Source of the DNA: an uncultured Solirubrobacteraceae bacterium
GTDB lineage: Bacteria; Actinomycetota; Thermoleophilia; Solirubrobacterales; Solirubrobacteraceae
Length of the DNA stretch: 64,000 nucleotides
Direction of reading: 5' to 3'
Assembly: GCA_963722455.1 (NCBI GenBank)
Contig: CAVRMD010000015.1
Span: 24,745 to 88,744, forward strand
The notes under the pieces were generated by a model. It made no database searches and had not been told where the DNA came from. It saw only the letters and a program-made list of their open reading frames with translations. Shown piece after piece: positions 19,182 to 32,342 of the stretch (the first letter of the stretch is position 1; the number at the start of each line of letters is the position of its first letter). Position numbers and translations under genes: made by a program.

Positions 19182-19934
19182 TCAGTACAGCGCCGCGGCG
19201 AGACGCCGCCGCGCGTCGCGCGCGAGCGGGTGCTCGACGCCGAGCTCGTCGAGCACGGCGACGATCGCCTTGCGCAGCCGCTCGCGGTCCTCGCCGCCGG
19301 CGGCCGCGAGCTCGTCGAGCAGGATGTCCAGGCCGCCCTCGTGGTCGTCCTCGTCGAGCTTGGCGAAGGCGGCCGGGATGCGCGGGTGCTCGCCGTCGTC
19401 GCGCTCGAGCTCGATGCGGGCGGCGAGCCCGTCGGCGCGAAACGTGCCGGCCGCCTCGCGCAGCCGCGCGAGCGCGCCGTCGATGTCGCCGCGGCCGTAC
19501 TGCAGCCGGGCGAGGGCGACGTTGGCGTCCGCGTTGGCGGGCTCGCGCTCGAGGACCAGCAGCAGCGACTGCTCGTCGCCGGCCTGCAGCAGCAGCTGCG
19601 TCTGCGACGGGACGAGCCCGTCGAAGAACGCCTCGACCTGGCTGGGCCCCTGGGCGCCGACGAACTCGGCGACGACGTCGCCGTCGCGAAACGCCTTCAC
19701 CGCCGGGATGCCCTGGATCGCAAAGCGCGTCGCGACGCCGGGGTTCGCGTCGGTGTCGACCTTGGCGAGCACGACCTCGCCCTCGCGGGCGGCGGCGGCC
19801 TGCTCGAGGATCGGGCCGAGCTGGCGGCACGGCGCGCACCACGGCGCCCAGAAGTCCACGACCACGGGGATCTCGGCCGAGCGCTGCAGCACCTCGGCCG
19901 CAAAGCCGGCTTCGTCGACGTCGATGACGGTCAT
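19182..19934 (-). CDS. Thioredoxin-domain protein with TPR-like C-terminal domain (YbbN/CnoX-like)
   Basis: WAPWCAPCR active site, followed by a helical repeat region. Confidence 0.85.
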   Translation of the reverse strand: MTVIDVDEAGFAAEVLQRSAEIPVVVDFWAPWCAPCRQLGPILEQAAAAREGEVVLAKVDTDANPGVATRFAIQGIPAVKAFRDGDVVAEFVGAQGPSQVEAFFDGLVPSQTQLLLQAGDEQSLLLVLEREPANADANVALARLQYGRGDIDGALARLREAAGTFRADGLAARIELERDDGEHPRIPAAFAKLDEDDHEGGLDILLDELAAAGGEDRERLRKAIVAVLDELGVEHPLARDARRRLAAALY

Positions 19935-20006
19935 GACGACAGCGTAGACAACGACCGCGGCCGCCTCCGGCGGCGGCCGCCGGCCGCAGATGCAAGGCTT
20001 TCGGCC

Positions 20007-20849
20007 ATGCCCGAGCGCACGATCCACAGCGGTTCCGGCGTTTGCATCAGCGCCGACGACGTGGGGGAGGGGCCGGCGGTCGTCCTGCTGCACGGTCTCA
20101 CCGCATCGCGGCGCTACGTCGTCATGGGCTCCAACGCGCTCGGCCGCGCCGGGCACCGCGTCGTCGCCTACGACGCGCGCGGTCACGGCGCCTCGACGCC
20201 GGCGCCGCACGCCACGGCGTACGGCTACCCGGAGCTGTGCGGCGACCTGCGCGCCGTCCTGGACGGGCTCGGGATCGAGCGCGCCGTGCTGGCCGGCGTC
20301 TCGATGGGCGCCCACACGTGCCTGCGCTTCGCCCTGGAGCTGCCCGAGCGCGTCGCCGCCATCGTCGCGATCACGCCGGCCTTCGACCCCGAGCAGTACG
20401 CCGACCCGGCGCGCGTCGCGCGCTGGGACGCGCTGAGCGACGCGCTGCGCGGCGGCGGGATCGAGCGCTTCGCCGAGGAGTTCGGCATCCAGCGCATCCC
20501 GGAGCGCTGGCGGGCGAGCGTCGCCCGCGCGCTGCGCCAGCGGCTGGCGGTCCACGAGCACCTCGACGCGCTGGCCGACGCGCTGGCCGCGGTGCCGCGC
20601 TCGGCGCCGTTCGCCGATCTCGACGCGCTGGCGGCGGTCACGTGCCCGGCGGTCGTGATCGCCAGCCGCGACGAGGCCGATCCGGGCCACCCGCTCGCGG
20701 TCGCCGAGCGCTACGCGCAGCTGCTGCCGGCGGGACGCCTGGTCGTCGAGGAGCCCGGCCGGTCGCCGCTGGCCTGGCAGGGCGGGCGGGTGGCGAAGCT
20801 CATCGCGCAGGTCGCCGCGCAGGCGGCCGACGGACGGCGAGCGGCGTGA
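20007..20849 (+). CDS. Alpha/beta hydrolase
   Basis: LLHGLTAS and the nucleophile elbow GVSMGA; length about 280 aa. Confidence 0.8.
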   Translation: MPERTIHSGSGVCISADDVGEGPAVVLLHGLTASRRYVVMGSNALGRAGHRVVAYDARGHGASTPAPHATAYGYPELCGDLRAVLDGLGIERAVLAGVSMGAHTCLRFALELPERVAAIVAITPAFDPEQYADPARVARWDALSDALRGGGIERFAEEFGIQRIPERWRASVARALRQRLAVHEHLDALADALAAVPRSAPFADLDALAAVTCPAVVIASRDEADPGHPLAVAERYAQLLPAGRLVVEEPGRSPLAWQGGRVAKLIAQVAAQAADGRRAA

Positions 20850-21315
20850 GCGCCGGGTACTCGGCACCCGGCTGCCGCTCAGGTTGTGCGCCGTGGCGAG
20901 GCTGAACCCCACGCGCGGCCATGGCTCGTCGCCGTCGTGCGCCACTGGGTGAGTCGAGCGCGATCATGCCGCCCTCCACTGAACGAACCCACTTTGGCGC
21001 ACACCGCGCTCAGCACCGCATGCAGCGCCCGATGTCACCCAGGGGGCTCGCCTCGCTCATGCGCCCCGCGATTGCCGCACGGAGCTCCGCCAGCCGCGTC
21101 AGCGCTTCGTGCTCCGTGTCGAGTTCGCGCCTGGTGGCGAGCAGTACCTCGGCGCCGGTCCCGCTGCGCTTCTGCGGCGGCCCGCTCCTCCGCGATCGTG
21201 ACGCTCAGATGTGGGCTCCGTAGTCGGTGAGGCAGCGCTCCCGAGCGTCGATGCCCAAGCCCTCGTCCACTTGGGCGAGCATCATCTCTCGCGCCCCGTA
21301 GGCTCCGCAGCGCTG

Positions 21316-22160: not shown

Positions 22161-22292
22161 GGAGTTCTCCCGTCTTGAGTACAGATGGCGCCTACGCTAG
22201 CGCCTGGCCCGGCGTCCGAGGGCGTTTTCCCCCATTCTGCGGCGCCCATGCCCCTTGACGGCGTGCGAACCGGTCGCGTACGTTGAACAACC

Positions 22293-22904
22293 GTGAGCGT
22301 CGACGCGACCCCGGCCGTCCCCGTCACCGCAACCGGCACCGGGTTGCGCAATCTCGACGGCCAGGCGATCGCGATCACGGTCTTCAGCACGATCAAGTGG
22401 TGGGGGCGCGCGTTCCTGCCCGTGCTCTTCATCGTCACCGCGCGCGTTCCGAAGCTGACCGGAACGCTGCGGGCGCTGTCGTTCATCCACTTCGCGCGCT
22501 GGTCGATCGTCAGGAAGATCCCCTACAACGGGCCACCGCAGCGCAAGCGCCGGCTGCACTACCCGCACATGTACTTCGAGAGCAACTTCAACGGCGGCTG
22601 GGAGGAGTACATCGACGCGTTCTCGCACATCCTCACCAGCGGGATGACGGCCTTCTGGGGCAGCTCCTACGGGTTCCCCAAGCCCCTGCCGACGGCGCCG
22701 TTCAAGGACTACATCCAGGCCAACGAGACCGAGGCCGACCACTACTACTCCGCCTACCCGGAGGCGACGGCGACGATGATCAGGCGCGCGCTCGAGCTCG
22801 ACGAGAAGCTCGCGCCGCTGAAGCGCAACGCCGAGCGGATGGACCCCGACGCGTTCGCCGCGGCCTACCGTGCCTTCCTCGCCGACGCCCAGGCGAGCCT
22901 GTAG
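22293..22904 (+). CDS. Unknown-function protein P1 (paralog of P2; DyP/P450 cassette)
   Basis: High GC3. Shares the blocks IHFARWSIV, YFESNFNGGWEEYIDAF and YYSAYPEATATMIRRAL with the downstream ORF. Confidence 0.7.
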   Translation: MSVDATPAVPVTATGTGLRNLDGQAIAITVFSTIKWWGRAFLPVLFIVTARVPKLTGTLRALSFIHFARWSIVRKIPYNGPPQRKRRLHYPHMYFESNFNGGWEEYIDAFSHILTSGMTAFWGSSYGFPKPLPTAPFKDYIQANETEADHYYSAYPEATATMIRRALELDEKLAPLKRNAERMDPDAFAAAYRAFLADAQASL

Positions 22905-23485
22905 TGCGGTCGCCGAACGTCACCGGGCAGGCGTACGCGTTCATGGCGATGACGCCCGTCAAGCCGGGCGAGGAGGAGGCGCTGGCGACGTACCTGCGCG
23001 GCCTGCGCCCGCTGGACTCCGCGCCCGGCGTGATCGCCGAGCGCGGGCCGCTGGCGAAGCTGCCGCGCACGCACATGGGCCGCTTCGTGATCGTCAAGGA
23101 CTTCCACGCCGACCCGAGCTGGAAGCAGCGCAAGGAGGACCACCTCGATCTGCCCTACCTCATCTTCACGAGCAACTTCGACGGCGACCTCGACAGCTAC
23201 CTCGACGAGCTGTGCGAGAAGCTCGCCCCCGAGGCGCCGCACATCTGGGGGCGCTGCGTGGGCTGCCCGAAGAGCGCCAAGGGCAACGCGCTCAAGCAGT
23301 ACCTCAAGCACAACCAGATCGACACGGGGATCTTCTATGCCGCCTACGGCGACACGACGGTCGGCACCGTCAAGCGCGCGCTGCGCCAGCGCGACCGCAT
23401 GATCGACTTCGCCGTCAGGGCGCAGGGCCTCGAGCCGGCGCAGCTGCAGCAGGCGTTCCTCGCCGAGTTCGGAAGCGCGGACTGA
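22904..23485 (+). CDS. Unknown-function protein P2 (paralog of P1; DyP/P450 cassette)
   Basis: The GTG overlaps the P1 TAG (TAGTG). Blocks THMGRFVIV, IFTSNFDGDLDSYLDEL and FYAAYGDTTVGTVKRAL align with P1. Confidence 0.7.
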   Translation: MRSPNVTGQAYAFMAMTPVKPGEEEALATYLRGLRPLDSAPGVIAERGPLAKLPRTHMGRFVIVKDFHADPSWKQRKEDHLDLPYLIFTSNFDGDLDSYLDELCEKLAPEAPHIWGRCVGCPKSAKGNALKQYLKHNQIDTGIFYAAYGDTTVGTVKRALRQRDRMIDFAVRAQGLEPAQLQQAFLAEFGSAD

Positions 23486-24876
23486 TGGCGGGCGCCGTAC
23501 GGATCGACCTCGCCGACATCCAGGGCGACATCCTGCGCGCCTACGGCAACGACTACGACTGCACGACATACGCGTTCGTGAAGATCACCTGCCCTCCCGA
23601 GCAGGCGCGCGCCTGGTTCGCCGGGCTGCTCGATCACGTCACGACCGCCGAGCCCTGGGCGCCCGGTGTCAAGCCGGTGACGACGCTCAACGTCGCGGTG
23701 ACGGCCGCCGGCCTGACCGCGCTCGGCGTGTCCGACGCGGTCGTCGGCTCGTTCTCGCGCGAGTTCCGCGAGGGGATGTCGGGGCGCGCGCCGCTGCTCG
23801 GCGACATCGGCCCGAGCGCTCCGGAGCAATGGGAGGCGGGGCTGGGCCGAGGCGAGGCGCACGTGCTGTTGACGATCAACGCGATGCAGCCGGCCGATCA
23901 CAAGCGCGCGCTGGGCCTGATGCAGGCCGCGATGGACGACGCCGGCGGCCTGCAGATCGTCGCTCAGGAGGACACCGAGATGCTGCCCGGCTCGCGCGAG
24001 CACTTCGGCTACGCCGACGGCTTCGCGCAGCCCTCGATCGAGGGCGTCAACGACGACAAGGCCCGCGGCGGCGGCGTCCCGCTCAAGAACGGCGCCTGGC
24101 GTCCGCTGGCGCTCGGCGAGTTCATCCTCGGCTACCCCGACGAGGACACGCGCGACGACCCCAAGCGCCACCGCCTGCCCAACGCGCCCGCCGCTCCGCT
24201 GGGTCGCAGCGGCACCTACATGGTCTGGCGCAAGCTCTACCAGGACGTCGCGCGCTGGCGCCGCGTCCTGCGCGACGCCGCCAAGCTGTACGAGGGCGGC
24301 GACGAGCACAAGCTGTCGGCGAAGGCCGTCGGCCGCTGGACCAACGGGGCGCCCCTCTCGAAGTACCCCGACGCGCCCCCGGAGACCTTCGACGCCGCGT
24401 CACCGGGCGCCAACGACTTTCGCTACGACCACGATGCCGACGGGATGCGCTGCCCGCTGGGCGCCCACATCCGTCGCTCCAACCCGCGCGACGCGCTCGG
24501 CTTCGAGGGCAACCTGAGCTTCCGCCACCGGATGATCCGGCGCGGGATGCCCTACGGCAAGGTGCTGCCCGAGGGGCGCCTGCGCGACGACGGCGTCGAT
24601 CGCGGGCTCGTCTTCGTGTGCTTCCAGGGCAGCATCTCGCGCCAGTTCGAGGGCGTGCAGGTCCAGTGGCTCAACGCGGGCAACATCTTCGGGTTGGGCA
24701 ACGACAGCGACTTTTTGCTCGGCAACCAGCAGGGGAAGGGCAAGATGACGATCCAGGGCAAGCCGCCGTTCTTCCTGCACCCGCAGGAGACGTTCGTCAA
24801 GACGCGCGGCGGGGAGTACCTGTTCGTGCCCGGGCTGACCGCGTTGTCGGCGCTCGCCGACGGCACCGCGGGCTAG
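23485..24876 (+). CDS. Dyp-type (dye-decolorizing) haem peroxidase
   Basis: N-terminal IQGDILR, the GxxDG motif (FGYADGFAQP), the proximal-His region CPLGAHIRRSNPRD, and RRGMPYG. The ATG overlaps the P2 stop (TGATG). Confidence 0.88.
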   Translation: MAGAVRIDLADIQGDILRAYGNDYDCTTYAFVKITCPPEQARAWFAGLLDHVTTAEPWAPGVKPVTTLNVAVTAAGLTALGVSDAVVGSFSREFREGMSGRAPLLGDIGPSAPEQWEAGLGRGEAHVLLTINAMQPADHKRALGLMQAAMDDAGGLQIVAQEDTEMLPGSREHFGYADGFAQPSIEGVNDDKARGGGVPLKNGAWRPLALGEFILGYPDEDTRDDPKRHRLPNAPAAPLGRSGTYMVWRKLYQDVARWRRVLRDAAKLYEGGDEHKLSAKAVGRWTNGAPLSKYPDAPPETFDAASPGANDFRYDHDADGMRCPLGAHIRRSNPRDALGFEGNLSFRHRMIRRGMPYGKVLPEGRLRDDGVDRGLVFVCFQGSISRQFEGVQVQWLNAGNIFGLGNDSDFLLGNQQGKGKMTIQGKPPFFLHPQETFVKTRGGEYLFVPGLTALSALADGTAG

Positions 24877-24889
24877 GGCGGCCACCGCG

Positions 24890-26170
24890 ATGGGCATCGT
24901 CGAGCAGATCAAGGAGGTCGCCGAGCGCCTCAGCGAAGACAAGGACCGCGCCGCCGAGGCGGTGTCGGAGATCGTCGGGCGCTTCGCCGACCGCGCGTCG
25001 GGGCCGGCGTTCGAGGCGCTGCGCCGCCACAACCCGATCCTCGCGTCCGGATCGACGACGATCGTGACGCTCAACGAGGACGTCAAGGAGGTCCTCGGCG
25101 ACCCCGCGCGCTTCACCGTCGACCTCTACGGCCCGAAGATGACCGCGATCACGGGGCCCTTCATCCTCGGCGTCGACGACACCCCGCTCTATCACCACGA
25201 CCACGCCGCGATGGACCGCGCCGTCACGCGCGCGGACATGCCGCGCCTGTCGGACCGGATGTACGAGATCGCCTGCGAGTACGTGGCGAGCGGCCTGCAG
25301 GAGGGCGAGCTCGACGTCGTCGCCGAGCTCGCCGACCCGGCGCTCGACGCGGCGATCGCCGAGTACTTCGGCACGCCCGGACCCGACACGCCCACCCAGC
25401 TGCGCTGGGCGCGCAACGTCTTCGAGGAGCTGTTCATCAACGTCGGCAACCTGCCGACGATCCGCGAGCGCGCGCTCGCCGACGCCGAGCAGTGGCGGCA
25501 CCATCTCGACAAGCTCATCGACGCGCGCAAGGCGCTCGTCGATGCCGGGGGAGAGGTGCCCGACGACGTCCTGACGCGACTGCTGCGCTACCAGCGCGAG
25601 GACGAGCCCAACCTGCAGGACATCGCGATCCGCCACAACCTGCTGGGCAACATCACGGGCTGGATCCCGACGATCTCCAATGCCTTCGCGCGCATCGTCG
25701 ACGAGCTGCTCGAGCGCGAGGACGAGCTCGCGGGCGCGCAGGCGGCCGCGCGCGCGGGCGACCGCGAGCTCGTCGGCGCGTACGCGTTCGAGGCGTCGCG
25801 CTTTCGCCCCCAGAACTTCGCGCTGCTGCGCTACGTCCCGGAGGACACGACGATCGCCGCCGGCACCGATCGCGAGACCCGGGTGAAGGCGGGATCGACG
25901 GTCTTCGCGGCGACGCTGTCGGCGATGCACGACGAGCGCGCGATCGAGGCGCCCGACGAGTTTCGCGTCGACCGCCCGTGGAGCGACTACCTGCTCTTCG
26001 GCCACGGGATGCACACGTGCTACGGCCAGCAGATCGTGCGCGCGCAGCTGCCCGCGCTGGCGACCGCGCTGCTCGAGGGACCGCGGATCCGCCGCGCCCG
26101 CGGACGCGCGGGCAAGCTGCGCTTCGAGGGCCCGTTCCCGTCCGGGCTGTCGGTCCGCTTCGAGGACTGA
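24890..26170 (+). CDS. Cytochrome P450
   Basis: Cys-ligand loop FGHGMHTCYGQQI and an ExxR-type region. It starts 13 nt after the DyP stop. Confidence 0.9.
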   Translation: MGIVEQIKEVAERLSEDKDRAAEAVSEIVGRFADRASGPAFEALRRHNPILASGSTTIVTLNEDVKEVLGDPARFTVDLYGPKMTAITGPFILGVDDTPLYHHDHAAMDRAVTRADMPRLSDRMYEIACEYVASGLQEGELDVVAELADPALDAAIAEYFGTPGPDTPTQLRWARNVFEELFINVGNLPTIRERALADAEQWRHHLDKLIDARKALVDAGGEVPDDVLTRLLRYQREDEPNLQDIAIRHNLLGNITGWIPTISNAFARIVDELLEREDELAGAQAAARAGDRELVGAYAFEASRFRPQNFALLRYVPEDTTIAAGTDRETRVKAGSTVFAATLSAMHDERAIEAPDEFRVDRPWSDYLLFGHGMHTCYGQQIVRAQLPALATALLEGPRIRRARGRAGKLRFEGPFPSGLSVRFED

Positions 26171-26456: not shown

Positions 26457-28064
26457 ATGTCCAGGGGTCGTGTCGGTCGTGGCGGTGTCGTGTTGCTCAC
26501 GCTGATGCTCGGCGTCGTTGGCTGCGGCGGATCAGACCAGGCGGACTCGGCCGGCGCCGGCGGCACGCTCGTGATCGCGCTGCCCAGCCAGCCCGAGGAC
26601 CTCAGCCCGATCACGGGCTCACACAACGTCTACGAGGGCAATCAGAAGTTCTTCAACGGCCTGCTGCGCTACAGCAAGGACCTCGGTACCGAGCCGGACC
26701 TCGCGAGCGAGATGCCCACCCGCAGCGCGGACGGCAAGACCGTGACCGTCAAGCTGCGCGACGACGTCAAGTTCCACGATGGCGCGCCGCTGACAGCGAA
26801 GGACGTCGCGTTTACGTACAGCGCGATCCTCGACGAGGACGCTGCGTCGCCGCTGGCGAGCCTGCTGGATTCGCTGGACTCGACGACGGCCGTCGACGAC
26901 AGGACCGTGCAGTTTGACCTCAACCGCCCGGACCCGGCGTTCCTTGACAAGCTGCAGATCGGGATCGTCCCGGCCGCCCAGCTGCAGGGCAAGGACATCA
27001 AGACCGCGGCGTTCAATCGCAAGCCGATCGGGACCGGTCCGTACGTGCTCAAGGAGTTTCAGCCGGGCGGCCGGATCGTGATGGAGGCCAACGAGAGCTA
27101 CTTCCGCGGGGCACCGAAGATCAAGCGGATCGTGCTGACGGCGGTCGAGGACGAGAACGCTCGCGTCGCGCTGCTGGAGAAGGGCACCGTCGATGCCGCC
27201 GGCATCGCCCCCAAGCTCGCGCCGCGGGTACGCCGCAACGGCGACTACGACGTGCTGGAGGTCCGCACCGCCGACGCCCGCGTCGCCGCGCTGCCCAACC
27301 GCGATCCGGTGCTGCGCGACCCGGCGGTCCGGCGCGCGCTGTCCTACGCGGTCGATCGTCAGAAGATCGTCGACGGCACGCTCGCCGGCGCGGGCGAGCC
27401 CGCCTTCGGCCCGATCATGAAGGACCACTGGGCCTACAGCCCGGCCGCCGAGAGGCCCTATGACCCCGCCGAGGCACAGCGGCTGCTCGATGCCGCGGGC
27501 TGGAAGCGCACCGGCGACGCGACGCGGACCAAGGCCGGCACCAAGCTGTCGTTCACGCTGATGTATCCGCCGGCCGACAGCGTGCGCAAGGACATCGCGC
27601 TGGCCTTCGCGTCGCAGATGAAGCAGGTCGGCGTCGACGTCAAGCTTGAGGGCCGCGAGTTCGATGTCATCGAGAAGCGCCAGGACACGGGCGCGACCGA
27701 GTTTGGCTACGGGACGCCGTATGACCCCGACATCGAGCTGTACACGCTGTTTCACTCGAAGTTCGCCACCGCCGACGAGGACGCGTTCACAAACTACCCG
27801 CGGACGACCAACCCGGCGATCGACGCGGCGCTGGATGCCGAGCGCTCCAAGCTCGACAGGGATGCGCGCAAGCGGGACTTCGTGAGGCTGCAGGAGGAGC
27901 TCGCCAAGGACGCCAGCTGGTTGTGGCTCGTGCGCCTGCGTCACGTCGTCGTGATCTCAAAGCGCGTGGAGGGCATCGATCCGCAGGTCGAGCCGCACGC
28001 GCACGGGTTCTCGCGCGGGACGTCGTGGAACCTCGAGGACTGGACCCTGGAGCCCAAGAGCTGA
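26457..28064 (+). CDS. ABC transporter substrate-binding lipoprotein, family 5 (peptide/nickel type)
   Basis: Lipobox LGVVGCGG and SBP_bac_5-like sequence (VKFHDGAPLTAKDVAFTY). Confidence 0.88.
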   Translation: MSRGRVGRGGVVLLTLMLGVVGCGGSDQADSAGAGGTLVIALPSQPEDLSPITGSHNVYEGNQKFFNGLLRYSKDLGTEPDLASEMPTRSADGKTVTVKLRDDVKFHDGAPLTAKDVAFTYSAILDEDAASPLASLLDSLDSTTAVDDRTVQFDLNRPDPAFLDKLQIGIVPAAQLQGKDIKTAAFNRKPIGTGPYVLKEFQPGGRIVMEANESYFRGAPKIKRIVLTAVEDENARVALLEKGTVDAAGIAPKLAPRVRRNGDYDVLEVRTADARVAALPNRDPVLRDPAVRRALSYAVDRQKIVDGTLAGAGEPAFGPIMKDHWAYSPAAERPYDPAEAQRLLDAAGWKRTGDATRTKAGTKLSFTLMYPPADSVRKDIALAFASQMKQVGVDVKLEGREFDVIEKRQDTGATEFGYGTPYDPDIELYTLFHSKFATADEDAFTNYPRTTNPAIDAALDAERSKLDRDARKRDFVRLQEELAKDASWLWLVRLRHVVVISKRVEGIDPQVEPHAHGFSRGTSWNLEDWTLEPKS

Positions 28065-28083
28065 TGCGCGGGTCCGCGGCCTC

Positions 28084-29049
28084 ATGTTGAAGCTCATCGT
28101 GCGGCGGTTGGCGGTCCTGCCGCTGATCCTGCTCGCGGTCGCGACCGTGACGTTCGCGTTGACGGAGATCTCGCCGTTTGATCCGGTCGAGGCGTACGTC
28201 GGCGCGGAGAGCAACGTCAGCGCGCAGAACAAGGCCGAGATCGCGCACGCGTGGGGATTTGACCAGCCGCTGTATGAGCGCTTCGGGCGCTGGATCGGAC
28301 AGCTCGCGCAGGGCGACATGGGCAACTCGATCGTCGCCGGCGGCCAACCGGTCGCCGGCGAGATCGCGTCGCGGGCCGGCGCGTCGATCGCTCTGCTCGG
28401 CGGCGCACTGGCGCTCGTGCTGATCGGGGGCCTTGTGTTCGGGGTGCTCGCGGCCGCGTTTCGTGGCACGGTGTTTGACTGGTTCGTGCGGACCATGTGC
28501 TACTTCAACACGGCCGCACCATCGTTCTGGGTCGGGCTGCTGGCGCTGTATCTGTTCTCGATCGAGCTCGGCTGGCTGCCCGCGGGCGGCTCCTCGGACC
28601 CGCGCGCGGTCGAGGCGGCGGGCGTCGACCTCGAGCACCTGATCTTGCCGATGGTCGTCCTGTCTCTGACGGGCTACGCCTGGTTCACGTTGTTCGTGCG
28701 CAACACGCTGCTTGAGGTTCTGCGCGAGGATCACGTGCAGTTCGCGCGCGCGCAGGGGATCGGTGAGGTCGCGGTGCTGCTGCGCTACGCGCTGCCCAAC
28801 GCGCTGATCCCGTTCGTGACGCTCGTCGGCACGCATCTCGCCGAGTTGATCGGCGGCACGATCCTGATCGAGAAGATCTTCGGCTGGCCCGGACTCGGCC
28901 TGCTGACCTTCGACGCCGCCATCAACGAGGACATCCCGCTGATCGTCGGCATCACGCTGTGCGGCTGCGTGCTCGTCGTGCTCGGCAACCTGCTCGCCGA
29001 CGTGCTGTACCGGGTCATGGACCCGCGCGTGCGCGAGGCGCTGACGTGA
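28084..29049 (+). CDS. ABC transporter permease (DppB/NikB-like)
   Basis: BPD_transp_1-type multi-TM protein with a typical MLKLIVRRL N-terminus. Confidence 0.9.
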   Translation: MLKLIVRRLAVLPLILLAVATVTFALTEISPFDPVEAYVGAESNVSAQNKAEIAHAWGFDQPLYERFGRWIGQLAQGDMGNSIVAGGQPVAGEIASRAGASIALLGGALALVLIGGLVFGVLAAAFRGTVFDWFVRTMCYFNTAAPSFWVGLLALYLFSIELGWLPAGGSSDPRAVEAAGVDLEHLILPMVVLSLTGYAWFTLFVRNTLLEVLREDHVQFARAQGIGEVAVLLRYALPNALIPFVTLVGTHLAELIGGTILIEKIFGWPGLGLLTFDAAINEDIPLIVGITLCGCVLVVLGNLLADVLYRVMDPRVREALT

Positions 29050-29957
29050 GCGCGGCCGGCGACGCGCTCGGATCCCCCCTGCGCGTCGGTGGCGCAGCGT
29101 CGCGGCGCCTCGCCGAGAGCGTTGGACGCTGGCCTGCGTTCGTGCGCGTCGCGGCAGGCGTGCTGGCGCTGCTCGTCGTGGCGGCCCTGTTGGCGAACGC
29201 CATCGCCCCGCTCGACGACACCGCCGTCGACCTCGACCACGTCCTGCACGCGCCGTCTGCGGCGCATCTGATGGGCACCGACGAGGTCGGTCGCGACCTC
29301 GCGAAGCGGGTGCTGCACGGCATGCGCGTGTCGCTGACGATCGCGGTCCTGGCGGCACTGGCGGCGGTCGCGTTCGGCACGCTGATCGGCGCCGTGGCGG
29401 GCACGATCGGCGGCCGGGTCGACACCGTCGTGATGCGCCTCACCGACGTCGCCGCATCCCAGAACCACCTCCTGTTCGGGATCCTGCTCGTCGTCTTGTT
29501 TCGCCCCGCCCTCGGCGGTGCCGGCGCCGTGATGCTCGCGATCGGATTGACGCACTGGCCGTCGCTGGCACGGATCGTGCGCGGCGAGCTGATGTCCGTG
29601 CGCGAGCGCCCATTCATCCGCGCAAGCGTCGGCGGCGGCGCGGGCCGCTGGCGCCTGGCGCGCCGCCACTACCTGCCCCATCTCATGCCGGCCGTCGGGC
29701 TGGCGTTCGTGCTGACCGTCCCGCACGCGATCTTCCACGAGTCGGCGTACTCGTTTCTCGGACTCGGCCTGCCGGCCCACCAGGCGTCGCTGGGCAACAT
29801 CCTCAACGACGGGCAGCGCTCGCTGCTGGCCGGCGGCTGGTGGATCGCCTTGTTCCCGGGTCTCGCGATCCTCGTCGCCGCGATGACGATCGGCACGCTC
29901 GCGGAGTTCTGGCGCGAGCACCTGCACCCGCGGTGGCGCTCGGAGCTCGAGCTATGA
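29046..29957 (+). CDS. ABC transporter permease (DppC/NikC-like)
   Basis: HLMGTDEVGRD motif. The GTG overlaps the upstream stop (GTGA). Confidence 0.87.
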   Translation: MSAAGDALGSPLRVGGAASRRLAESVGRWPAFVRVAAGVLALLVVAALLANAIAPLDDTAVDLDHVLHAPSAAHLMGTDEVGRDLAKRVLHGMRVSLTIAVLAALAAVAFGTLIGAVAGTIGGRVDTVVMRLTDVAASQNHLLFGILLVVLFRPALGGAGAVMLAIGLTHWPSLARIVRGELMSVRERPFIRASVGGGAGRWRLARRHYLPHLMPAVGLAFVLTVPHAIFHESAYSFLGLGLPAHQASLGNILNDGQRSLLAGGWWIALFPGLAILVAAMTIGTLAEFWREHLHPRWRSELEL

Positions 29958-30895
29958 GCGCGCGGCTCGACGTCGACGAGCTGTCGGTCGGCTTTCGCAC
30001 GCGGGCCGGGACGGTGCAGGCCCTGTCGCGGGCGAGCCTCACGGTCGCGCCGGGCGAGCTGCTGCTCGTCGTCGGCGAGAGCGGCAGCGGCAAGACGGTG
30101 CTCGCGCATTCGCTGCTGCGGCTGCTGCCGCGCAACGTCGACGTCTCAGGGTCGATCCGGCTCGGCGGCGAGGACGTGCTCGCGCTCGAACCCGACGCGC
30201 TGCGGCGCATGCGCGGCCGCAGGATGGCGCTGATCCCCCAGAGCCCCGCGTCGTCGCTGAACCCCGTGCGCAAGCTCGGCGGCCAGCTGCTCGAAGCGGC
30301 CCGGGCGCGCGGACTGACCGAGCATGATGCTCGCCGGCGCCTGCGCGAACTGCTCGCCGAGCTCGGCCTGGACCTCGCGTTCATCAACGGGCGCTATGTC
30401 CATCAGCTGTCGGGCGGGATGCAGCAGCGGATCGTCAACGCGATGGCGCTCGTCGGCGAGCCCGACATCGTGATCGCCGACGAACCGACATCCGGCTTGG
30501 ACTCAGATCTCGTGCACGCCACCGCGGTGCAGCTGCGGGAGATCTCGGCGCGCGGTTCGTCGCTGCTGGTCATCACCCACGACCTGCGCCTCGCCCAGCG
30601 CCTCGGCGGCCGCCTCGCGCTGCTGTACGCAAGCCGGATCGTCGAGATCGGGCCGACGGCAGCGTTCTTCAACGCGCCCGCACACCCCTACGGCCGCGAG
30701 CTGCTGCGAGCGCTGCCCGAGCGCGAAGGCAAGTCGATTCCCGGCCTGTCACCCGAGCTCACCGCGCTGCCCGACCACTGCGCCTTCGCCGACCGCTGCT
30801 CAGCCCGCGTTGACCGCTGCACCGAAGCCGTCCCCGATCTGTATCCCGCTGGCGCTGGCGTCCTGGCGCGCTGCTTTGTCCATGCTGAGCGCTGA
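29954..30895 (+). CDS. ABC transporter ATP-binding protein (DppD/NikD-like)
   Basis: Walker A GESGSGKT, signature LSGGMQQR, and the oligopeptide-type C-terminal Cys motif. ATGA overlap with the upstream gene. Confidence 0.9.
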   Translation: MSARLDVDELSVGFRTRAGTVQALSRASLTVAPGELLLVVGESGSGKTVLAHSLLRLLPRNVDVSGSIRLGGEDVLALEPDALRRMRGRRMALIPQSPASSLNPVRKLGGQLLEAARARGLTEHDARRRLRELLAELGLDLAFINGRYVHQLSGGMQQRIVNAMALVGEPDIVIADEPTSGLDSDLVHATAVQLREISARGSSLLVITHDLRLAQRLGGRLALLYASRIVEIGPTAAFFNAPAHPYGRELLRALPEREGKSIPGLSPELTALPDHCAFADRCSARVDRCTEAVPDLYPAGAGVLARCFVHAER

Positions 30896-31688
30896 CGCAA
30901 TCACCAAGACGTTCGGATCCGGCGCCGGCCGCGTCGTCGCGATCGAGCGCGTCACCCTGCAGCTGCGCGCGGGAGCGCGCCTGGCGCTCGTCGGCCCGAG
31001 CGGCTCGGGCAAGACCACGCTCGCGCAGATCATGGCGCTGCTGCTGGCACCCGACGACGGTGTCGTGAGCGTCGACGCAACGCCCGTCGCGTCCTGCGGC
31101 GTGCGCTGTGACCGCGAGCTGCGCCACCGCGTACAACTCGTGTGGCAGGCGCCGCGCATGGCCGTCGACCCACGGCTGCGCGTCGGCGACGCGATCATCG
31201 AACCGCTCGCAGCCAGCGGCCTGCTGCCAGCCGGCCGCGCCGAGCGCCGGGCGCTGATCGCGTGGTGGGCGGCGCGCGCGGGGTTGACGCGGGATCTCGT
31301 CGAGCGCTACCCGCACGAGGTGTCCGAGGGGCAGCTTCAACGCGCATGCCTCGCGCGCGCGCTGATCGTCAGGCCGCGCTACCTGATCTGCGACGAGCTG
31401 TCCTCGATGCTCGACGTCTCGACGCAGGCCGCGCTGCTGGAGGTGATCGCAGCAGTCCAAGATGAGCGCGAGCTCGGCGTCATGCTCATCACACACGACC
31501 GAACGTTGGCCGGCGCGTGGTGCGAGCAGACCGTCGACATCAGCGACCTGGCAGCCGGCCGCGAGGTCCAGGACGTCTCAGGCACCCCGGCCCGCGCACG
31601 CTCGCGAGCGCTCGGCCGTCAGGTCTGCCGTTCTCCTACGCCGGGCGCGTCTGGTGACGCGTCCCCGCAAGGCCGTCGAGGCAGCTGA
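30882..31688 (+). CDS. ABC transporter ATP-binding protein (DppF/NikE-like)
   Basis: Walker A GPSGSGKT, signature VSEGQLQR and Walker B LICDE. Confidence 0.87.
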   Translation: MLSADAITKTFGSGAGRVVAIERVTLQLRAGARLALVGPSGSGKTTLAQIMALLLAPDDGVVSVDATPVASCGVRCDRELRHRVQLVWQAPRMAVDPRLRVGDAIIEPLAASGLLPAGRAERRALIAWWAARAGLTRDLVERYPHEVSEGQLQRACLARALIVRPRYLICDELSSMLDVSTQAALLEVIAAVQDERELGVMLITHDRTLAGAWCEQTVDISDLAAGREVQDVSGTPARARSRALGRQVCRSPTPGASGDASPQGRRGS

Positions 31689-31754
31689 GATCTCCGATGC
31701 AGTCGCGCGTCGAGGCGCCCGCGAGCGCGGGCGCGCATCGACGGCGGCCCGGGT

Positions 31755-32342
31755 TCAGGCGTGCTCGTGCTCGTGGACGTCCTCCAGCCCCGCCTCGTGG
31801 ACGTGCGGGTGCTCGTGGGCAGCGCCGTCGTGCTCGTGGTCGTGCGCGTGCTCGACGTGCTCGTGGTCGTGGCCCGTGTGGGCGTGCACGTGCGTCTCTC
31901 CGTCGTGCTCGTGGGCGTGGGCGTGCGGTGCGTCGTGGGTGTGCTCGTCGGTCATGTGGCTCCTTGGGTCGTGGTCGTCGCGTGCGATGGCGGGCGCATG
32001 CGGCGGGTCGGCCGCGCCGGCGTGCAGATGCTCGATGTGGCGCAGCGCCTCGTCGAGCAGCGTCGCGACGTGCGGGTCATACAGGGCGTAGATCACATGG
32101 CGGCCGCTGCGGCTGCCGAGCACGAGCCCGAGGTCGCGCAGGATCCGCAGCTGATGCGAGACGGCGGGCTGCTCCATCTCGACGACGGCTGCGAGCTCGC
32201 CGACCGCGCACGCACCCGCCCGCAGCCGCGCGAGGATCCGCACGCGACTGGGCGTCGACAGCGCGCCCATGACGCGCGCGACGTGCTGCGCATCCTGCGC
32301 ACTGATCGGGATGCCCGCGTTGACGCCATGTGCCTCGCTCAT
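31755..32342 (-). CDS. ArsR/SmtB family metalloregulator with an 84-aa His-rich C-terminal tail
   Basis: wHTH VGELAAVVEMEQPAVSHQLRILRDLGLV. The tail holds 26 His in the last 84 residues (HEHDGETHVHAHTGHDHEHVEHAHDHEH...). Confidence 0.85.
   Translation of the reverse strand: MSEAHGVNAGIPISAQDAQHVARVMGALSTPSRVRILARLRAGACAVGELAAVVEMEQPAVSHQLRILRDLGLVLGSRSGRHVIYALYDPHVATLLDEALRHIEHLHAGAADPPHAPAIARDDHDPRSHMTDEHTHDAPHAHAHEHDGETHVHAHTGHDHEHVEHAHDHEHDGAAHEHPHVHEAGLEDVHEHEHA

Follow-up and report, generated by a model that had tools for sequence, protein, structure and literature searches.

The physiological substrates and roles of bacterial DyP-type haem peroxidases are an acknowledged open question (PMC10820274). 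The enzyme of Deinococcus radiodurans (DrDyP, PDB entries 8RE2 and 8RE3) was characterised biochemically by itself: the roles of its catalytic Asp, Arg and His residues are described, and the protein on its own shows no activity at pH 7.5, its haem being six-coordinate and low-spin (PMC10820274). Its gene, DR_A0145, adjoins DR_A0146, whose catalase-like product is reported to have no catalase activity, and is rated less important than OsmC for resistance to oxidative stress (PMC6300522). A relative of DrDyP is encoded in the DNA stretch analysed here, 64,000 nucleotides long and termed the window, from an uncultured Solirubrobacteraceae bacterium (assembly GCA_963722455.1, contig CAVRMD010000015.1, positions 24,745 to 88,744 of the forward strand). 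It is the third product of a four-gene cassette (22293-26170, plus strand) that starts with two paralogs, P1 and P2, of a protein family named P in this work and ends with a cytochrome P450 gene. The P family, and the module in which P and DyP are accompanied by a P450 or by a catalase-related protein (Cat), appear to be undescribed so far; the enzyme superfamilies DyP and P450 are already known, and the logic proposed below for the module has eukaryotic and cyanobacterial precedents.

Dedicated partner proteins are also encoded with the DyPs of the EfeUOB and encapsulin systems, which use class A or B enzymes. Precedents of another kind come from oxylipin synthesis. Catalase-related haemoproteins (coral cAOS, MAP_2744c) and P450s that work without a redox partner (CYP74, the P450 domains of Ppo enzymes) are two known classes of haem enzymes that transform fatty-acid hydroperoxides, and such enzymes are typically fused to, or encoded beside, the dioxygenase that makes their substrate. 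This fusion logic is documented for allene oxide synthase (AOS) joined to lipoxygenase (LOX) (PMC5617202), and fusions of a dioxygenase with a P450 that acts on the hydroperoxide without a redox partner are equally on record (PMC4420034; dioxygenase-P450 fusions also in PMC13049297).

The window cassette consists of four same-strand open reading frames (ORFs) in DNA of about 70-75% G+C. P1 (22293-22904, plus strand, 203 amino acids) has a GTG start, belongs to the 'IHFARW / FESNFNG' type of the P family and features a hydrophobic helix 1. Its paralog P2 (22904-23485, plus strand, 193 amino acids; BLASTP 29% identity over 146 amino acids, E=1e-19) carries the motif THMGRF (His-x-x-Arg) and also starts with GTG, which overlaps the P1 stop codon in the sequence TAGTG at 22902-22906. 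The P2 stop codon overlaps in turn with the ATG of the DyP gene (23485-24876, plus strand, 463 amino acids) in TGATG at 23483-23487, and 13 nucleotides separate the DyP stop codon TAG at 24874-24876 from the ATG at 24890 of the P450 gene (24890-26170, plus strand, 426 amino acids). These junctions, the paralogy of P1 and P2, the DyP motifs IQGDILR, FGYADG and GAHIRRSNPRD and the P450 motif FGHGMHTCYG had all been pointed out in a sequence-only reading of the window and were verified here. In related loci P1 and P2 overlap in 53 of 76 cases and P2 and DyP in 64 of 82, and the P450 gene follows DyP within 30 nucleotides in 39 of 47; the tight packing is conserved across relatives and is not a matter of chance.

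The same reading proposed that the two unnamed paralogs, DyP and P450 form an operon. Support for an operon comes from natural gene fusions and from synteny in about 170 loci, which make it a probable transcriptional unit. Among GTDB species genomes, P1-P2-DyP are found in this order in all 80 loci (from Solirubrobacterales, Svornostia abyssi, Frankia and Parafrankia) wherever the contig allows it. P1 and P2 are present together in each of 80 metagenome loci of 51-75% G+C, with DyP as the next gene in 68 of them, and the remaining 12 contigs stop before any DyP match. As the next gene, the P450 is present in about 48 of 85 genome-derived loci and, among the 34 metagenome loci that have enough downstream sequence, in 16. 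Conserved co-occurrence thus holds for P1-P2-DyP, but not for the P450 as a constant member, which is found in roughly half of the loci. P1-P2-DyP make up the invariant core, to which the P450 is added often but not always as fourth member, and the module spans at least five phyla. The suggestion that a DyP and a P450 with dedicated small partners had not been described agrees with our finding no paper on this combination, on the module or on the P family.

The window DyP is assigned to class C/V of the DyP-type peroxidases by its profile matches, its residues and its nearest relatives. It matches DyP_N (score 32.7, cutoff 27.5), Dyp_perox_C (27.4, cutoff 20) and TIGR01413 (105.8 bits, cutoff 100.5). 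Its closest PDB match is DrDyP (8RE3/8RE2; phmmer E=4e-70; BLASTP 35% identity over 453 amino acids), followed by an ancestral D-type DyP, AnaPX (5C2I), fungal DyPs and DyP2 (4G2C), while EfeB/YcdB appears only at about 3e-3. The segments FGYADG (Asp of the GXXDG motif), RRGMPYG (distal Arg) and GAHIRRSNPRD (proximal His) line up with those of DrDyP. The amino terminus (MAGAVRIDLADIQ) has no twin-arginine motif or evident signal peptide, and no encapsulin targeting tail is seen at the carboxyl-terminal end. The absence of encapsulin and EfeU/EfeO genes, remarked on before, extends from the window neighbours to the surveyed neighbours of the genome-derived loci. The cassette differs therefore from the EfeUOB and encapsulin-DyP systems in lacking EfeU, EfeO and encapsulin genes, a twin-arginine signal and a targeting tail, and in the class of its predicted peroxidase.

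The P450 matches PF00067 with 28.7 bits (cutoff 22.8) and displays the Cys-ligand loop FGHGMHTCYG. It is 41.5% identical (E=9e-65) to the P450 of a Skermanella cluster composed of separate P, DyP and P450 genes, far closer than to any solved P450 (best PDB match E=2.5e-20), which argues that it belongs to a clade dedicated to the P-DyP module. The Cys ligand is kept in all 42 members of this clade, whose I-helix consensus is G-(W/F)-(I/V)-P-T (G-W-I-P-T in the window) with Asp or Glu in none of the 42. The enzyme thus lacks the I-helix acid-alcohol pair (A/G)Gx(D/E)T, a trait of the canonical monooxygenase mechanism and not a criterion for membership in the superfamily. No gene for a ferredoxin or reductase redox partner is present near the P450, either in the window neighbourhood or in related loci.

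P1 and P2 could be attributed to no family by the sequence-only reading, and the searches made here leave them unnamed: those of Pfam, PADLOC and PDB sequences were negative, and NCBIfam gave a single match, far below threshold, for P1. Neither protein has a Pfam match at E<=1, a Pfam scan of 117 P-family members one by one yielded no consistent family, and a PDB profile search with 59 diverse members came back empty. The family is large. P1 has 1896 homologous matches among clusters at 90% identity, none with a Pfam domain, and the family amounts to 1267 clusters at 50% identity; its members are labelled only 'hypothetical protein' wherever a source gives any name, and public data hold an identical copy of the 203-amino-acid P1. 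Conserved positions, in the numbering of the natural P1-P2 fusion P0266, are E80, N82, N84, Y90, F121, H134, Y136 and Y139 in the P1-type half and H236, R239, C295 and Y322 in the P2-type half. The His-x-x-Arg pair H236/R239 is invariant (100% of 106 sequences) and is the feature shared by the most distant members, including the single-P proteins of Deinococcus, Rhodococcus and Sinorhizobium.

The fold was modelled on P0266 (368 amino acids, about 40% identical to P1 and 31% to P2) with an alignment of 117 sequences. The AlphaFold model has a mean predicted local distance difference test score (pLDDT) of 93.1 and a predicted template modelling score (pTM) of 0.91, and shows the secondary-structure order beta-alpha-beta-beta-alpha-beta twice in tandem; that of window P1 alone, built on a shallow alignment, is unusable (pLDDT 56). 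Foldseek comparison of the P0266 model with the PDB returns as top matches solely tandem ferredoxin-like (dimeric alpha+beta barrel) proteins: the ABM/SchA-like WhiE-ORFI (9LMN), sulfur oxygenase reductase (2CB2), Abx(+)O, the putative monooxygenases 3MCS and 3F44, and CT0912 (3GN6). Probabilities for 9LMN, 2CB2, 3MCS, 3F44 and 3GN6 are 0.93-1.0 with E=2e-5 to 5e-3, and TM-scores are merely 0.3-0.37 with root mean square deviations of 7-12 A, so that the result is a fold assignment and not one of family membership. The model predicts that the P1 and P2 halves pack as a tandem ferredoxin-like barrel. The earlier statement of no family is refined accordingly to a recognisable predicted fold, with a likeness to ABM proteins at fold level only. 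Like the ABM-type tandem barrels, P proteins would comprise two beta-alpha-beta-beta-alpha-beta halves, and unlike them they have about 190-200 amino acids per half, extra carboxyl-terminal helices and motifs of their own (H-x-x-R, FESNFNG, AYP). A resemblance of motifs also raised the idea that P1 and P2 are a split 'half-DyP'; it was rejected at the sequence level, hhalign giving a probability of 0.1 between the P family and a DyP alignment.

A second flavour of the module, with a single P gene, was found by searching a plasmid collection with the window DyP and inspecting the neighbourhoods. It includes the locus of DrDyP itself. On D. radiodurans chromosome II (locus L174, 3196-6429; NZ_OV024759.1, 22298-25531) the order is P, DrDyP and catalase-like gene. 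The gene that precedes DrDyP codes for a 243-amino-acid 'hypothetical protein' (WP_051618841.1) that matches the P1/P2 profile at E=2e-19, and the one that follows codes for a 'catalase family protein' (WP_010889406.1, DR_A0146) matching the profile of the catalase-related domain described below at E=1e-42. The retrieved passages of the DrDyP paper (PMC10820274) and of the Deinococcus review (PMC6300522) contain no mention of the P gene, nor do those of the former mention an operon. The Deinococcus locus thus shares with the window its class C/V DyP, the closest solved relative, preceded by a P-family gene. It differs in that a single P gene stands in place of the two paralogs, that the second haem enzyme is a catalase-related protein and not a P450, and that genes for a 3-hydroxyacyl-CoA dehydrogenase and a TetR regulator lie just upstream.

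The order P-DyP-Cat recurs in Rhodococcus koreensis and Acinetobacter lwoffii. Comparison of coordinates places the order Cat-P-DyP, a common one among proteobacterial plasmids, on at least 24 plasmids, from genera such as Brucella, Agrobacterium, Shinella, Sphingobium, Novosphingobium, Sphingomonas, Roseomonas, Methylobacterium/Methylorubrum, Paracoccus, Haematobacter and Ketogulonicigenium. A catalase-related gene comes after P1-P2-DyP in one metagenome locus (L130). The second haem enzyme is therefore interchangeable, being a P450 or a catalase-related protein. A variant on a Sinorhizobium chiapasense plasmid (L176, 5359-6270) has DyP followed by a protein of the NIPSNAP family, another dimeric alpha+beta-barrel family, and by a second, shorter P protein (171 amino acids, E=2e-6 to the P profile); hemA lies 1.1 kb upstream of its first P gene.

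The components of the module are also joined in single polypeptides. P1-P2-DyP fusions have 860-964 amino acids, and a Rhizobium fusion of P and DyP has 976. In giant alphaproteobacterial proteins of 1423-1620 amino acids a P450 is followed by a region weakly similar to P, by two predicted transmembrane helices and then by P and DyP; these giants are encoded on a Sulfitobacter pontiacus plasmid (L082, 3583-8445), on plasmid pNL2 of Novosphingobium aromaticivorans (L083, 3592-7923; WP_011907039.1) and in Pararhizobium (L093, 4676-8947), and are annotated merely as 'cytochrome P450' or 'Dyp-type peroxidase domain-containing protein'. Finally, fusions of about 620-660 amino acids combine P1-P2 with a catalase-related domain of 300 amino acids. 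This domain has no Pfam match; its profile matches the small catalase-related protein MAP_2744c (PDB 3E4W) at E=3e-11 and true catalases at about 1e-9, and its invariant motifs are RDQH (distal His) and R..VY (proximal Tyr). One such fusion, of 634 amino acids, is encoded on a Logan contig (SRR26457244; L086, 8001-9905) with no DyP nearby. It sits in a run of small same-strand genes, TrbC- and TraG-like ones among them, and this context looks like a conjugative or integrative element. A role in anti-phage defence, an idea that arose from this fusion, was set aside as PADLOC gave no matches.

The neighbourhood of the module differs between the two flavours. In Novosphingobium resinovorum genes for oleate hydratase, 3-hydroxyacyl-CoA dehydrogenase, acyl-CoA thioesterase and a TetR regulator are divergent from Cat-P-DyP, and Brucella anthropi has the same set minus the thioesterase. 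A 3-hydroxyacyl-CoA dehydrogenase gene adjoins the single-P trio of Deinococcus and Acinetobacter as well. Thioesterase, TetR and efflux genes lie near the single-P loci of Sphingomonas, and a Paracoccus locus has acyl-CoA dehydrogenase, electron-transfer flavoprotein and adenylate-forming enzyme genes nearby. In the two-P flavour of the window, genes for patatin-like phospholipases are found directly after the P450 in L085 and L087 and beside DyP in L096.

The cassette is probably transcribed from a promoter of its own. A sigma-70-like element (22255-22284, plus strand) with -35 TTGACG at 22255-22260, a spacer of 18 nucleotides and -10 TACGTT at 22279-22284 stops 8 nucleotides short of the P1 GTG, so that the P1 messenger is probably leaderless. 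In 62 of 82 related loci a pattern of similar kind is present at most 130 nucleotides ahead of the P1 start as called, and this extends to loci in which P1 has same-strand genes in front of it, which indicates that P1 is probably the first gene of its own transcript. In a subset of the 62 loci the distance is about 100-125 nucleotides, probably because the gene caller took an internal start. Among Solirubrobacteraceae the spacer (consensus ..CGAAC..GTCGC.) and the bases just 5' of the -35 (..ACGTCCC) are conserved too and could hold an operator. Generic scans for consensus promoters and for terminators found none in or around the cassette; the promoter escaped because its -10 fits TATAAT at only three of six positions. 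An Rfam scan of the cassette region gave sub-threshold noise only. Co-transcription with the DtxR, ZIP and Nramp genes that lie upstream in some relatives is unlikely, P1 keeping its conserved promoter and the window lacking those genes.

That P, DyP and the second haem enzyme are associated physically and functionally is very probable, because their synteny extends over at least five phyla and fusions of four kinds join them. What they do together is less certain. We tentatively favour a chemistry of fatty-acid (hydro)peroxides, a possibility that stops short of being probable and is suggested by the classes of the fusion partners, the lipid-gene contexts, the membrane anchor of the giant proteins, the hydrophobic helix of P1 and the His/Arg pair. 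The three fusion partners (DyP, P450 and catalase-related domain) have two common properties, haem and peroxide reactivity. The system would be cytoplasmic or membrane-associated and its substrates would be free unsaturated fatty acids or their hydroperoxides. A P1/P2 heterodimer would bind the hydrophobic substrate, which fits the hydrophobic helix 1 of P1 and the invariant His-x-x-Arg, whose Arg might anchor the carboxylate. It would then either oxygenate the substrate without cofactor, as ABM-type oxygenases do, or hand it to DyP. DyP would react with peroxide (ROOH or H2O2), generating or consuming a hydroperoxide or radical, and the partnerless P450 would rearrange or reduce the hydroperoxide, a step taken by the catalase-related haemoprotein in other lineages. 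In this way lipid peroxides would be detoxified or products of oxylipin type formed.

Such a module would be a bacterial counterpart of the lipoxygenase-AOS and dioxygenase-P450 (Ppo, or linoleate diol synthase) pairs, assembled from non-homologous parts. In the AOS-LOX fusions of corals and cyanobacteria, and presumably for MAP_2744c (3E4W), a small catalase-fold haemoprotein is fused to or adjoins the presumed hydroperoxide maker, as in relatives of P; the module differs in having no lipoxygenase domain and an unrelated P barrel with DyP as partner, and the window in having a P450 instead of the catalase-related protein. Fungal linoleate diol synthases carry a peroxidase-type haem domain and a partnerless P450 in one polypeptide, an architecture that the P450-P-DyP giants mirror. 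In those enzymes, however, the peroxidase domain has the animal-peroxidase/cyclooxygenase fold and not the DyP fold, the P450 clades are unrelated, and the bacterial module always has P in addition. No lipoxygenase or animal-haem-peroxidase Pfam domain occurs in the four window proteins or in the fusions. A haem partner of the putative hydroperoxide-transforming type is nonetheless at hand in each flavour, the P450 in the window and the catalase-related domain or gene in relatives, and the resemblance is one of logic only. The broader proposal, that the P proteins are cofactor-independent fatty-acid oxygenases or carriers of a new class and with class-C DyP and a hydroperoxide-rearranging haem enzyme make up a so far unrecognised, phylum-spanning bacterial oxylipin/lipid-peroxide pathway, is a doubtful one.

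Several observations weigh against a fatty-acid peroxide role. The lipid-gene context is strong solely for the single-P/catalase flavour; for that of the window it consists of three patatin loci among about 170, plus homology, and the window cassette has no adjoining lipid gene. P1 and P2 match neither the ABM family PF03992 nor related Pfam families by sequence or profile, at the level of sequence the P proteins are unrelated to ABM oxygenases, to lipoxygenases and to every fatty-acid-binding family, and the TM-scores of the fold comparison are low. The I-helix acid is likewise missing from some true monooxygenase P450s. What the three fusion partners have in common could be haem as such and not peroxide chemistry. 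About 35 Solirubrobacteraceae loci have genes of the multicopper-oxidase, ZIP and DtxR families upstream of the module, about 10 of them also Nramp; in this block (e.g. L081, 5778-9918), which directly precedes the cassette on the same strand, a ZIP transporter and a DtxR/MntR-family repressor are encoded together with a two-domain protein resembling multicopper oxidases and, in some loci, Nramp. In other Actinomycetota the cluster is preceded by extracytoplasmic-function (ECF) sigma factors or SARP/BTAD regulators. What these neighbours suggest is regulation by metals or stress, or a part in secondary metabolism. The window has no multicopper-oxidase/ZIP/DtxR block, and its neighbours include no genes of ECF, SARP/BTAD, TonB/Fur or Slam type.

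Stress regulation would fit P1/P2 as a DyP-binding, activating or regulatory subunit in general peroxide or oxidative-stress defence, enabling DyP at neutral pH or supplying its physiological reductant, with no specific lipid substrate and with the P450 or catalase-like protein as an auxiliary peroxide scavenger. P and DyP genes are always neighbours, often with a stop codon that overlaps the next start, and also occur as fusions; DrDyP, inactive on its own at pH 7.5 with its six-coordinate low-spin haem (PMC10820274), is encoded just after a P gene; some Actinomycetota have ECF sigma factor genes immediately in front of the module, with a 4-nucleotide overlap with the start of a fused P1-P2 gene in L088; and Solirubrobacteraceae provide the context of Mn/Fe regulator and transporter. 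However, the fusion in L086, where an unrelated catalase-fold domain is the partner and DyP is missing from the surroundings, is not what one would expect of a structure-specific regulatory subunit. The missing catalase activity of DR_A0146 and the rank of DR_A0145 below OsmC (PMC6300522) do not favour such a defence either, and the recurrent oleate hydratase, thioesterase and 3-hydroxyacyl-CoA dehydrogenase neighbours would be left unexplained. We consider this role unlikely. Haem or iron homeostasis is a further reading of the metal genes: the P1/P2 barrel would bind haem and deliver, store, protect or degrade it for its neighbours in the manner of IsdG/MhuD, HemQ/Cld or DyP. Haem is the one property common to all fusion partners, the dimeric alpha+beta barrel is also the fold of IsdG-type haem oxygenases, Cld/HemQ and DyP, and His and Arg are invariant in P. 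Iron or metal genes occur near the module not only in Solirubrobacteraceae but in Granulicella (a TonB-dependent receptor and Fur) and Sulfitobacter (a transferrin-binding-like protein and Slam), to which the hemA gene of Sinorhizobium can be added. P proteins nevertheless lack sequence similarity to IsdG, Cld and DyP (against the latter, the hhalign probability is the 0.1 given above), searching the PDB with their profile gave nothing, and the 50 best Foldseek matches include no IsdG. P1/P2 do have conserved Asn, His and Trp residues, in an order that differs from the Asn-Trp-His catalytic triad of IsdG-type ABM units, which are about 110 amino acids long. Haem chaperones fused to their own clients are not known, P1 keeps its own conserved promoter even behind metal genes, and no metal gene adjoins the cassette in the window. 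A haem-handling role is considered quite unlikely.

A function in specialised metabolism is very unlikely. In this reading the cassette would tailor an aromatic or polyketide-like small molecule, the product of genes elsewhere in the genome, with P1/P2 as ABM-like cyclase or oxygenase next to peroxidase and P450. The best Foldseek matches are indeed the polyketide ABM/SchA-like WhiE-ORFI and the decarboxylase Abx(+)O, SARP/BTAD regulators adjoin the module in L087, L088, L170 and at the Novosphingobium giant, and the weak NCBIfam matches of the P450 are natural-product P450s. Anthraquinone dyes are moreover classic DyP substrates (PMC10820274). The Foldseek TM-scores are low, however, and a self-contained unit that changes neighbours across at least five phyla is atypical of tailoring genes. 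Core genes for polyketide synthases, nonribosomal peptide synthetases, terpenes or ribosomally synthesised and post-translationally modified peptides were not found adjoining the module in the inspected loci, in agreement with the earlier remark that no obvious biosynthetic core lies near the cassette.

In the window the cassette is surrounded by hydrolase genes, DinB and an HU gene of opposite orientation, and downstream by an ABC transporter of Opp/Nik type. The latter is a five-gene Opp/Dpp/Nik-type set (26490-31688, plus strand; SBP_bac_5, two permeases and two ATPases) that begins 320 nucleotides past the P450. It is followed on the minus strand (31755-32342) by a gene for a 195-amino-acid protein whose amino-terminal part looks ArsR-family-like by eye and whose carboxyl-terminal part is extremely rich in His, Asp and Glu (HTHDAPHAHAHEHDGETHVHAHTGHDHEHVEH...). 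Transporter and His/Asp/Glu-rich protein (26490-32342) suggest a nickel or cobalt uptake locus, whose adjacency to the cassette is not kept in other genomes. Upstream, two long ORFs overlap on opposite strands at 19182-20945; the minus-strand one has a thioredoxin motif WCAPC in its carboxyl-terminal part, and in the plus-strand one an alpha/beta-hydrolase domain is confined to residues 282-510. The real genes of this segment are probably a thioredoxin-like one on the minus strand and a shorter hydrolase on the plus strand.

In the loci fetched here, class C/V DyPs are not stand-alone enzymes: they are encoded with the predicted alpha+beta-barrel proteins of the P family and usually with a second haem enzyme, and P, DyP, P450 and catalase-related domain have been fused repeatedly in nature. 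A large family of 'hypothetical proteins' is thereby defined for annotation, and experiments on the module can address the physiological role of bacterial DyPs directly. With it, bacteria may possess a counterpart of the lipoxygenase/AOS and dioxygenase/P450 machineries by which eukaryotes make oxylipins. If an oxylipin or lipid-peroxide pathway proves true, the physiological role of class-C DyPs would lie there, and the P partner would be what switches DrDyP-like enzymes on at neutral pH.

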